Source of the DNA: Candidatus Omnitrophota bacterium
GTDB taxonomy: Bacteria > Omnitrophota > Gorgyraeia > Gygaellales > Profunditerraquicolaceae
Direction of reading: 5' to 3'
NCBI GenBank assembly: GCA_042570405.1
Contig: JBHPGR010000001.1
Location: 50,512-114,511, forward strand
DNA length: 64,000 bases
Shown here: positions 15,001-18,000 of the stretch, piece by piece
Layout: each line of letters starts with the position of its first letter
How positions within the stretch are numbered: the stretch's first letter is position 1
Made by a program: the position numbers

Positions 15001-18000
15001 ACTTTTCACGGTCATGTGTTGAGGGGTTATTTTACCGGATTTAAATCCCGTGTCTTTATTGTGATCGAGCGCTTCTTAGGCAAATTTACAGATATGCTCG
15101 TCACGGTAAGCGCTTCAGTTGCCGGGGAACTTCTTGACTTAGAGATATGCCAAAAGGATAAGATCAAAGTCATCCCTCTGGGTTTTGAGCTGGATGAATT
15201 GCTCGCTATACCTCTAGCAGAAAATGGGGGGAGCATTGCAAATATCGGAATCATCGGAAGGCTAGTGCCGGTAAAGAACCATCGTTTGTTTTTGGAGGCA
15301 GCAGCAATACTCCTTAAGGATAACCCGGTCGAAAAGATAAAATTTAAGATTATCGGCGATGGAGAGCTTAGGGAAAACCTGGAAGATTATGCTGCTAGAC
15401 TTAATCTGACCGCACAGGTTGAATTCACGGGTTGGAAGCGTGAATTAACTAAGCTATATTCTGGATTAGAAGTAGTAGCCCTGACTTCGATAAACGAGGG
15501 AACACCCGTATCGCTGATCGAGGCTATGGCTTCAGGCAGGCCAATAGTATCTACCGAGGCGGGAGGGGTCAGGGATCTATTAGGTGAGAACCTGGATTCT
15601 GCTCAGGGCAAAGATTTGAAATTCAGGATCATGGAGAGAGGAATAATCGTTGATTCCAAGGACCCGGCTGATTTTGCCGCTGCCTTAGCCGCTATATTAA
15701 GAGATAAACAACTACGCAGGGATATGGGGCTAAGGGGCCGCGAATTTGCAGCGAGAATTTACTCAAAGAATAGATTGATCAGGGATATACAAGATCTGTA
15801 TTGTACCCTCCTAAGCTGAAGTAGACCCCGCGTAATTCATCTTCCAGCCTAAACTTAAAAGAAAGAATAGTATATTTTCGCTTGTTTTGTGATATAATAT
15901 GAAACTCTGGAGTTTGTCCAGGCAGGAAACCCCTTGATACCAAACGAGATATAAATATGCAGTATATCCAGTTTTTCTTTATCCCTCTTGTGTTAAGTTT
16001 AGGGCTTACCCCTTTAGTGCGCCGGTTTGCGCTTAAGTACGGCTTTGTTGCTCTGCCCAGGCCAGACCGTTGGCACCAGCGTCCTACTGCTCTTCTGGGC
16101 GGGATCGGTATATATATAGCGGCGGTAGTCTCAGCGATTTATTTTGGCCTGGCTAACAGGCAGATCCTGGGTCTGTTTTTGGGCGGCACACTGTTGTTCG
16201 TCGTCGGTTTAGCGGATGAGAAATTCAACTTTGCTCCGCAGGTCAAGTTACTCGCTCAGATCATCGCCGGCTGCATCGCTGTCTTCTTCGGGTTCGTCTT
16301 TGGCCTGCCCTTGAATATTTTTTTAGCTGTTCCTTTGACTCTCTTCTGGATCATCGTGATCACAAACGCCTTCAATATCCTGGATAATATCGACGGGTTG
16401 GCGGTGGGGATCGCGGTGGTATCCGGCCTGATGCTATTCTTTTCCTCGCAGCTTTTCTCTAATAACCCGATGGGGGTATTGGGGCTTATTTTAGCTGGTG
16501 CTGCATTGGGGTTTCTCCCCTATAATTTCAATCCGGCCAGGATCTTTATGGGTGATTCCGGGAGCATGTTTTTAGGATTCTGCCTTGCGCTTATCTCTAT
16601 CAGTGGAACAGTCCGGCATGTCTCAAACCTCTTGATCACGATGTTCGTTCCGGTTTTAATCTTAAGCGTGCCAATATTTGATACCATATTCGTGATGCTC
16701 GTAAGACGAATACAGGGCAGGAGGATCTTTGAGGGAGGAAAAGACCATACATCCCACCGCTTGATCACCTTGGGCCTCTCTCCGAGAAAGACGGTTTTGT
16801 TGTTATACGCTATAAGCGCATCTTTCGGGATGATCGCGATCCTTTATTCCAGGGTCAATGCTCCGATCATCTCCATAGTTGCTTTCTTAGCTATCGTAGT
16901 GATGCTCTTCCTGGGGATTTTTATCTTTGAGTTTACTGCCGCTAAACGTAAGACAAGCAACAAACATGAACTAGTAGGGCAGAGGCATAATCATACGGCC
17001 TTAAATAGTATCTTACTGTATAAACGCAGGATTATAGAGGTGTTGTTGGATTTTGTGCTGATCTGTATCGCTTACTACTGCGCCTACTTCTTGCGCTTTG
17101 AGGGCTTCCAATTGAGTAGCAACCTGCAATTGATGCAGGAGTCATTAGTATGGATAATCCTGATAAAGATGTCGGTCTTTTTTGTCTTCGGGCTCTACCG
17201 CGGCGTCTGGAAGTATATCGGTATATCGGATTTCTTTACCATGTTTAAAGTAGTAAGTATCAGCTCCGTTGCTTCGATTATATTTCTTACCTTTGTCTTT
17301 CGATTCCGCGAATACTCCCGGGCGGTATTATTCATCGATTGGCTCTTACTTTTGTTTTTAGTCATGGGTTCCCGGTTCATATTCAGGATCATCGGCGAGT
17401 TCTTCAGCCGGGTGAAGAGTAAGGAAAAGAAGATACTTATCTTCGGCGCCGGGGATACCGGTGAGATGGTGATGCGCGAGATCAAGCGTAATAAAAAGCT
17501 GCTTTATGACCCGGTCGGATTCATAGATGACGACCCCTATAAGGCGGGTCATAAAATACACGGCATATCCGTGCTTGGCGACCGGGATAAGATCGAAGAC
17601 CTGGTGCGCGGCCATAACATCAAAGAGGTGATCATCGCAATGCCTTCGATCGATAAGGATGATTTTTCCGAGATCGTCCATATCTGCCAACATTGCGGCA
17701 TTCCCTACAGGAGTGTGAGGGGGATTTTAGATGGGGAAGGACAAGATGAGTTCAAACAGAATTAGGCTGGCGCAAGCTTGCGACCAATTGATACTCTTCT
17801 CGATATATGCCATAGCCTTTTTTCTTCCCATCTCCAAAGCAATAATCGAGGCCCTGAGTATATTCGCGATCTTTGTCTACGTACTCAAAAAATCATCTAC
17901 GCGGCAGGGCGTCGGCAAGTCTAACCTGAATACTGCGGTTTTTGTTTACCTGATCATCTGTTTCTTTTCGATCTTCGTAAGCCCGAGCCTCAGGATAAGC

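Follow-up and report, generated by a model that had tools for sequence, protein, structure and literature searches.

A polytopic phosphoglycosyl transferase fused to a four-helix and Rossmann-like module in Omnitrophota and other bacterial phyla

In a 64,000-nt stretch of DNA from a Candidatus Omnitrophota bacterium (contig JBHPGR010000001.1; the whole stretch that was analysed is hereafter called the window), we identified a gene whose product combines a phosphoglycosyl transferase (PGT) domain with a membrane module normally found on other enzymes. The gene (15957..17765, + strand) is a single ATG-started open reading frame (ORF) of 602 amino acids (aa) plus stop codon. It encodes a polytopic PGT domain of the PNPT superfamily, fused in cis through a linker to four transmembrane (TM) helices and a Rossmann-like domain, with no second catalytic domain. 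An NCBI entry derived from a metagenome-assembled genome (MAG), 'hypothetical protein ACFL1K_00300 [Candidatus Omnitrophota bacterium]' (P0001), has the same sequence (100% identity).

Results

Domain architecture of the fusion protein

Two Pfam families account for most of the protein: Glycos_transf_4 (PF00953) at aa 71-217 (E = 1e-32, 113.8 bits versus a gathering threshold of 27) and CoA_binding_3 (PF13727) at aa 435-583 (E = 2.9e-18, 66.9 bits versus a threshold of 25). The same scan gave no match to Polysacc_synt_2, the catalytic domain of PglF-like dehydratases, and none to Bac_transf (PF02397) at E<=1. A preliminary description, made from the sequence alone, had proposed this order of domains, with four extra TM helices between them and the module deprived of its usual catalytic partners. 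Our searches bear it out on each of these points, and every motif it quoted is in place: NAFNILDNIDGLA at aa 137-149, FMGDSGS at 197-203, GAGDTGEMV at 497-505, VGFIDDDP at 520-527 and VIIAMP at 558-563. Among NCBIfam models, that of WecA aligns with aa 14-319, and that of MraY also matches. The large-PGT model TIGR03025 aligns with aa 363-590 through profile positions 1-224 of 445 only (102 bits versus a cutoff of 295), the part matched being the N-terminal, non-catalytic half.

Hydropathy analysis places 11 TM segments in aa 1-322, followed by a basic linker and then four TM segments in aa 357-475. We compared this with an AlphaFold2 (AF2) model built on a 101-sequence alignment; an earlier model from 43 close homologs had a mean predicted local distance difference test (pLDDT) score of 58.8, with poor membrane parts. 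In the model used (mean pLDDT 81.3, predicted TM-score 0.76), the helices agree with the hydropathy profile and are followed by a beta-alpha-beta domain at aa 491-586.

The gene thus divides into five parts, all on the + strand. The PNPT (polytopic PGT) catalytic domain (aa 1-324; 15957..16928), with 11 TM helices and a WecA/MraY fold, is supported by Pfam, NCBIfam, PDB sequence search and Foldseek. It is followed by a poorly conserved, K/R/H-rich linker, predicted to be cytoplasmic (aa 325-356; 16929..17024; pLDDT <50 at aa 333-354). The four-helix bundle of the module (aa 357-486; 17025..17414) shows hydropathy peaks at aa 359-377, 396-414, 430-448 and 457-475 and AF2 helices at 347-380, 384-410, 423-448 and 455-486; its alignment with TIGR03025 begins at profile position 1, and it also aligns with residues 17-221 of WbaP. 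The Rossmann-like CoA_binding_3 domain (aa 487-590; 17415..17726), also labelled 'DUF' (domain of unknown function), contains the glycine-rich loop GAGDTGE and the acidic GFIDDD, and matches both PF13727 and PglD_N. A short, variable C-terminal tail and the stop codon complete the gene (17727..17765; pLDDT <50 at aa 592-602). The protein stops 12 aa past the Rossmann domain, and the 3′ end of its gene overlaps the start of the next ORF (17731-18978) by 35 nt. The window protein is therefore not bifunctional: the second catalytic domain is gone.

The catalytic domain belongs to the PNPT superfamily

Profile, motifs and a 10-11 TM fold all place the fusion protein in the PNPT superfamily. In a PDB sequence search, the PNPT part matches MraY chains (E = 1.4e-10). 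Foldseek with the corresponding part of the AF2 model, where pLDDT is mostly >80, likewise returns MraY (6oyh, E = 1.5e-10, target-normalized TM-score 0.72-0.75), with target-normalized TM-scores of 0.70-0.75 for MraY overall and about 0.6 for DPAGT1. The signature motifs are present, namely the D-D/E loop (D87-E88, in cytoplasmic loop 1), NxxNxxDxxDGL, FMGDxGS (F197-S203) and DHxxH (D263-H264...H267), and within them D87, N137, N140, D143, D146, D200, H264 and H267 are invariant across 101 family sequences, as are D263 and the other residues of F197-S203. These catalytic motifs fall in the predicted cytoplasmic loops, as does most of the domain's positive charge.

The module is closest to that of PglF-like dehydratases

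To place the module among its relatives, we searched aa 355-602 against 1.84 billion representatives at 50% identity, obtaining 13,168 matches at E<=1e-3 and 521 at E<=1e-30. We sorted the best 150 representatives by local phmmer seeds and Pfam spot checks. Just over half (77) belong to the fusion family, counting fragments and longer variants: 72 are PNPT+module, some of them fragments; four carry Polysacc_synt_2 as a third domain (P0124, P0131, P0139 and P0224; 936-1013 aa); and one carries a polysaccharide deacetylase/DUF3473 region (P0261). About 32 have the PglF/WbpM/CapD architecture of module+Polysacc_synt_2, two of which also bear an N-terminal monotopic PGT domain (Bac_transf+module+Polysacc_synt_2; P0249 and P0239). 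A single representative joins the module to an Epimerase-type short-chain dehydrogenase/reductase (SDR; P0269), and about 40 are short fragments. Some of the PglF-like dehydratases (P0172, P0186) bear a C-terminal response-regulator receiver domain.

Classical large PGTs, in which Bac_transf follows the module, are absent from these 150, and the closest relatives outside the fusion family are all PglF/WbpM/CapD-type dehydratases. Comparisons with PDB entries point the same way. The family's module profile scores 63 bits over ~96 aa on 3nkl, the isolated N-terminal domain of a WbpM-type protein, versus 37 bits over ~206 aa on WbaP structures. The Rossmann domain matches 3nkl in the PDB sequence search as well, and Foldseek with the C-terminal part of the AF2 model finds 3nkl at a target-normalized TM-score of 0.71, with WbaP (8t53) also matched.

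Together, these results show that the fusion protein carries a true PF13727 module, as judged by the profile, the four preceding TM helices and the glycine-rich loop, and that this module is homologous to both known versions and nearer to that of the dehydratases. The preliminary description had seen here a mixture of parts from two families of initiating transferases, an idea that these affinities do not support. The catalytic domains that define large PGTs and PglF-type dehydratases were searched for and are absent, so the fusion protein belongs to neither group.

The fusion is a genuine gene and is widespread

The architecture recurs in many genomes. The best 120 homologs are 585-614 aa long, share 60-68% identity with the query over 96-100% of its length, and carry the same Pfam pair in colinear order. 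A profile search listed 120 further homologs at 37-57% identity, with the same length and architecture save for one three-domain protein. In all, more than 200 of the listed homologs are colinear over their full length, and the same colinear ~600-aa protein occurs in independent assemblies from NCBI, JGI, ENA and Logan.

We also scanned GTDB, taking one genome per species, with the family alignment and examined the best 80 loci, which together with L001 form a set of 81. PNPT and module are both present in all 80, covering the query essentially end to end, and they are encoded in a single ORF in 79 (80/81 with L001). In the remaining locus, L061 (OZ245330.1, a complete MAG chromosome), two adjoining ORFs encode the PNPT part and the module, respectively, which may reflect a frameshift, a pseudogene or a true split. 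The 80 loci span Omnitrophota, Planctomycetota (Scalindua and MAGs labelled 'Planctomycetia'), Acidobacteriota (Pyrinomonadaceae, Blastocatellia, Chloracidobacterium, Thermoanaerobaculia), Desulfobacterota (Desulfarculus, Desulfobacteraceae and the cultured isolate Dethiosulfatarculus sandiegensis SPR), Nitrospinota and Chloroflexota; names on profile-search matches add Nitrospirae.

The fusion architecture is thus common, not rare, occurring in at least five phyla. It had at first been taken to be unusual, a view that cannot be kept when 77 of the best 150 module representatives and 80/80 of the best GTDB loci carry it. The same survey settles that the gene is real: a merger by frame error is ruled out by the colinear homologs and by the single ORF in 80/81 loci. 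Automatic annotation calls homologs 'hypothetical' or simply WecA, so that the additional module goes unnoticed, and our full-text literature searches, whose coverage is incomplete, returned no description of a PNPT carrying the 4TM and Rossmann module.

Module and catalytic domain are equally well conserved

We next computed identity to the query separately for each part of the protein, over two family alignments. The module is as well conserved as the catalytic domain, with 40-50% identity in the 4TM bundle and 36-45% in the Rossmann domain compared with 41-47% in the PNPT domain; values fall to 14-19% in the linker and 10-16% in the tail. The Rossmann domain shows no variation among the 101 sequences at G497, A498, G499 and G502 or at D524/D525, an acidic pair that closes strand 2. 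A glycine-rich loop and an acidic pair ending strand 2 are the classic elements by which Rossmann folds bind the phosphate and ribose of nucleotides. The module is therefore under selection.

Three-domain relatives suggest loss of an ancestral dehydratase domain

The four relatives that carry PNPT, module and Polysacc_synt_2 allow the origin of the fusion to be addressed. In a neighbour-joining tree of the module, PNPT+module proteins separate from module+SDR proteins, and P0124, P0131 and P0139 nest inside the fusion group. P0224 falls among the ordinary dehydratases, and its PNPT domain scores 82 bits versus 200-370 for the others. Because its PNPT domain is distant and its module groups with dehydratases, P0224 is an independent fusion.

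The SDR domains of these proteins differ in the same manner. The defining motif of PglF/WbpM dehydratases is TDKxnMx3K, with Thr395/Asp396 and Lys397 as catalytic residues (PMC8987622). P0224 and all module+SDR proteins retain this region as STDKA...MGxxKR. The three-domain proteins of the fusion clade, which include L015 (981 aa), have instead STSKA...AVATRR in P0124, SSIKA...LGATRR in P0131, SIEKA...FALSKR in P0139 and SSRRA...HGVSRR in L015, so that TDKxnMx3K is replaced by TSK/AxxxR, SIK/LxxxR, IEK/FxxxK and SRR/HxxxR, respectively. In all four the NAD-binding glycine motif is kept but the catalytic Asp is gone; the Lys is missing from most of them.

The simplest reading of these sequences is an ancestral PNPT-dehydratase fusion that later shed its dehydratase. 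A PNPT would first have been fused ahead of a complete PglF-like membrane dehydratase; the SDR domain would then have decayed, losing the catalytic TDK...Mx3K residues; and it would finally have been deleted in most lineages, leaving PNPT and module, with the latter under strong selection. Searching the window, we found no separate PglF-type dehydratase or SDR of that type, no second module and no second PNPT.

Genomic context

The fusion gene lies within a long polysaccharide-type cluster on the + strand. Ahead of it and in its vicinity are genes for a Wzx flippase, methyltransferases, B12-radical-SAM enzymes, a deacetylase, a protein joining glycosyltransferase family 1 (GT1) and DUF218 domains, a DUF4330 protein, an SDR and a GT4-family glycosyltransferase. 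After it come Wzy_C, RmlA, an RmlD-like gene, RmlB, an oxidoreductase, an acetyltransferase and further glycosyltransferases. The gene order is the same in a 60%-identical relative.

Three neighbours recur across the 81 loci. The first is an extended SDR of UXS/ArnA/GalE-like type (13617..14576, +), recognized by Pfam Epimerase and GDP_Man_Dehyd, which falls below every NCBIfam cutoff and has human UDP-glucuronate decarboxylase as its best PDB match (4lk3, E = 5.6e-57); in 40/81 loci the gene immediately upstream of the fusion is a homolog of it. We considered whether this SDR might be the split-off dehydratase domain and rejected the idea, as it is UXS/GalE-like rather than Polysacc_synt_2-like and usually stands upstream of the fusion. 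The second is the GT4-family enzyme (14623..15819, +; Pfam Glycos_transf_1 and Glyco_transf_4), probably the second-step transferase, with homologs within the flanks in 52/81 loci and directly upstream in 21/81. The third, whose start overlaps the fusion gene, is a Wzy_C (O-antigen ligase/polymerase-like) membrane protein (17731..18978, +; E = 2.4e-22). Its homologs occur in 43/81 loci, adjoining the fusion in the eight loci closest to the query (mostly Omnitrophota) and lying ~2 kb downstream in most others, chiefly Acidobacteriota. SDR, GT4 and fusion form a conserved cassette. This cassette, the three-domain relatives and the variety of sugar-modifying domains attached to the module in other proteins give indirect support to the earlier suggestion, still plausible, that the module may couple initiation to sugar-nucleotide modification.

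The protein with GT1 and DUF218 domains (624 aa; in the region 10667-13219 of the window) accompanies the cassette in the closest relatives, L001, L002, L007, L013 and L014, and in four of these five, L007 being the exception, the DUF4330 protein comes next after it. A second Wzy_C gene, of the O-antigen ligase family, lies at 41120-42364 and is followed by GT9 heptosyltransferase genes (42339-43325 and 44361-45422) and a mannose-1-phosphate guanylyltransferase-like gene. Because this region (41120-45422) looks more like a WaaL/lipopolysaccharide-core region, the Wzy_C protein beside the fusion may be a polymerase or a different ligase.

Three B12-binding radical-SAM proteins are encoded in the one polysaccharide cluster (2914-5205, 7607-9055 and 25489-26937), one of which, of 763 aa, also has a fused class I SAM methyltransferase domain; the set suggests unusual methylation or another sugar modification. 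A carbamoyltransferase of NodU/CmcH type (605 aa; 32718-34535) is encoded beside a nucleotidyltransferase and a further SDR, suggesting that the product contains a carbamoylated sugar. At the thresholds applied, Pfam gave no match for two large ORFs in the cluster, 29155-31002 (615 aa) and 38350-40410 (686 aa). The cumulative GC skew reaches its maximum near 50 kb (~50000-50700), where the genes turn from all + to all - strand; this could mark a replication landmark or reflect plain gene-strand bias.

Discussion

A candidate regulatory module on a polytopic PGT

We propose that the fusion protein is the initiating polytopic PGT, WecA/WbpL-like, of a Wzx/Wzy-type surface-polysaccharide pathway. 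Its donor would be a UDP-sugar, probably a derivative of UDP-HexNAc, whose sugar-1-phosphate would be passed to undecaprenyl phosphate (Und-P) with release of UMP. The 11-TM PNPT domain is predicted to end in the cytoplasm, where the basic linker would also lie, and the four further helices would bring the chain back to the same side. With 11 helices, a K/R-rich linker and four helices, the Rossmann domain would thus be cytoplasmic and stand beside the active-site face of the PNPT.

What the module does there may be gauged from WbaP of S. enterica, the one protein for which uridine-nucleotide binding and dimerisation through such a module have been shown. UMP, UDP and UTP stabilise the isolated WbaP DUF, and the IC50 for inhibition of the full-length enzyme by UMP is 4.1 uM, the curve suggesting an extra site (PMC10942596). 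The DUF also forms most of the WbaP dimer interface, most inter-chain contacts lying in the DUF and the TM bundle, and the authors of that work proposed a 'one-size-fits-all' UMP feedback and pointed out that the module is also present on PglF-like dehydratases (PMC10942596). The large PGT EpsZ of Myxococcus is activated by a response regulator, which probably promotes its dimerisation (PMC12802240).

By analogy, the module of the fusion protein would bind uridine nucleotides such as UMP, and/or would mediate oligomerisation of the PNPT, and would thereby tune the first committed, Und-P-consuming step. The idea of UMP feedback may carry over from WbaP because UMP is the by-product of both PNPTs and monotopic PGTs. 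Taken as a whole, a PNPT whose module serves as a cytoplasmic uridine-nucleotide-sensing and/or dimerising regulator is the explanation we favour, with moderate confidence. Its parts differ in strength: the architecture and the ancestry are very probable, and the mechanism, nucleotide sensing and/or controlled oligomerisation, is tentative, standing a little short of an even chance.

A bolder form of the same idea, which we regard as doubtful, would make the module a portable and self-sufficient uridine-nucleotide switch, plugged into both PGT superfamilies and into sugar-nucleotide-modifying enzymes, and here giving a polytopic PGT feedback by UMP or UDP-sugar. Such a switch might possibly also recruit the neighbouring SDR and GT4 into an initiation complex. 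To our knowledge, feedback regulation of this kind has not been described for any WecA/MraY-type enzyme.

Several observations weigh against the regulatory explanation and the ancestry it includes. At position 88 the query carries E instead of the D found in more than 90% of the 101 family sequences. On the WecA equivalog TIGR02380 it scores 101.2 bits versus a curated cutoff of 326.05, and because of this shortfall the fusion protein is not demonstrably WecA; the JGI name for homologs, 'UDP-GlcNAc:undecaprenyl-phosphate GlcNAc-1-phosphate transferase', is an automatic label. The neighbour-joining tree has shallow resolution, long terminal branches and no outgroup, and is unrooted and without support values, so that the direction of change, SDR loss rather than later gain of a divergent SDR, is not proven. 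The analogy with WbaP crosses to a different catalytic fold. Finally, the dimerising beta-hairpin of WbaP follows the DUF, and the fusion protein ends ~10 residues past its last strand.

Alternative explanations

The strongest alternative, compatible with regulation and not exclusive of it, is that the orphan module acts as a scaffold. It would dock soluble sugar-nucleotide-modifying enzymes, chiefly the neighbouring UXS-like SDR and possibly also the GT4, and channel a modified UDP-sugar into initiation, the lost covalent dehydratase having been replaced by a non-covalent partner. Elsewhere the module is indeed joined covalently to such enzymes, including Polysacc_synt_2 dehydratases, the Epimerase-type SDR of P0269 and the deacetylase plus DUF3473 of P0261, and both PGT superfamilies are found fused ahead of module and dehydratase (P0224; P0249 and P0239). 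The placement of SDR homologs (40/81) and GT4 homologs (21/81) directly upstream of the fusion, across phyla, also fits. However, the neighbouring SDR is of another subgroup (UXS/ArnA/GalE-like, with 69 bits on Polysacc_synt_2) than the module's usual partner, and about 30/81 loci have no such SDR within 6 kb. We rank this plausible account second, and consider it rather unlikely.

The module could instead be purely structural, with the four helices and the Rossmann domain stabilising, oligomerising or localising the PNPT in the membrane without sensing a ligand. The concentration of WbaP inter-chain contacts in the DUF and TM bundle (PMC10942596) is compatible with such a role, as are the description of the WbpM N-terminal region as a mere membrane anchor, dispensable for catalysis (PMC8987622), and the conservation of the 4TM bundle in our family, which is at least as high as that of the Rossmann domain. 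An 11-TM PNPT, however, needs no anchor, and a purely structural role would not obviously require invariant G497, A498, G499, G502 and D524/D525. We regard this possibility as improbable.

It is still less likely that the module is a functionless leftover of the ancestral PNPT-dehydratase fusion. The three-domain relatives with decaying SDR domains do show the ancestral protein losing parts. A vestige is nonetheless very unlikely because identity in the module matches that of the PNPT domain across at least five phyla while linker and tail drift, and because GAGxxG and DD are invariant; moreover, the module is kept in all 81 loci examined. An artefact, in which a sequencing or assembly frame error joined wecA to a truncated capD/wbpM, has nothing in its favour beyond the split form in L061, which shows that frameshifts occasionally occur, and can be dismissed, given the recurrence of the same ~600-aa protein across NCBI, JGI, ENA and Logan assemblies, the one ORF in 80/81 loci and a downstream gene that is an intact Wzy_C rather than a dehydratase remnant.

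Relation to known enzymes

The fusion protein can be set beside four groups of enzymes. With WecA/WbpL/MraY (PF00953) it shares the fold, the 11 TM helices of WecA and all signature motifs within its 324 N-terminal aa, as well as a genomic role as first enzyme of a Wzx/Wzy-type cluster; we know of no characterised member of this group with a C-terminal 4TM and Rossmann module. The membrane-bound UDP-GlcNAc 4,6-dehydratases PglF/WbpM/CapD (Cap5D) have the closest module, by representative rank, by 3nkl score and through the three-domain relatives. In these enzymes, however, the module is N-terminal to the dehydratase, whereas in the fusion protein it is C-terminal to the PNPT and Polysacc_synt_2 is absent.

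Large monotopic PGTs (WbaP, WcaJ, CpsE, EpsZ) follow a similar logic, in that an initiating transferase is joined in cis to four TM helices and a DUF. Their catalytic domain comes from an unrelated superfamily, though, and the order is reversed, the catalytic domain standing first in the fusion. The module of the fusion is also less like that of WbaP than those of the dehydratases, and leaves no room for a post-DUF beta-hairpin. The bifunctional PGT fusions (P0249 and P0239, and P0224 with its intact Polysacc_synt_2) join both PGT superfamilies to PglF-like dehydratases, and keep the second catalytic domain that the window protein lacks.

The architecture described here is widespread and uncharacterised, and its evolutionary trail is plausible; it does not amount to a new kind of system. 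Among bacterial initiating transferases, the most abundant class bears the 4TMH-DUF module, as do PglF-like dehydratases. Its occurrence on two enzymes of unrelated function was called 'puzzling' in the paper on the WbaP structure (PMC10942596). The fusion family adds a third, independent host, the other PGT superfamily. In this family, the module has outlived the dehydratase with which it probably came, and would thus provide natural evidence of a dehydratase-independent role that serves the initiation step. With its many and varied proteins, including one from a cultured isolate, the family also allows the proposed nucleotide-sensing and dimerising roles of the module to be tested on a different catalytic scaffold.

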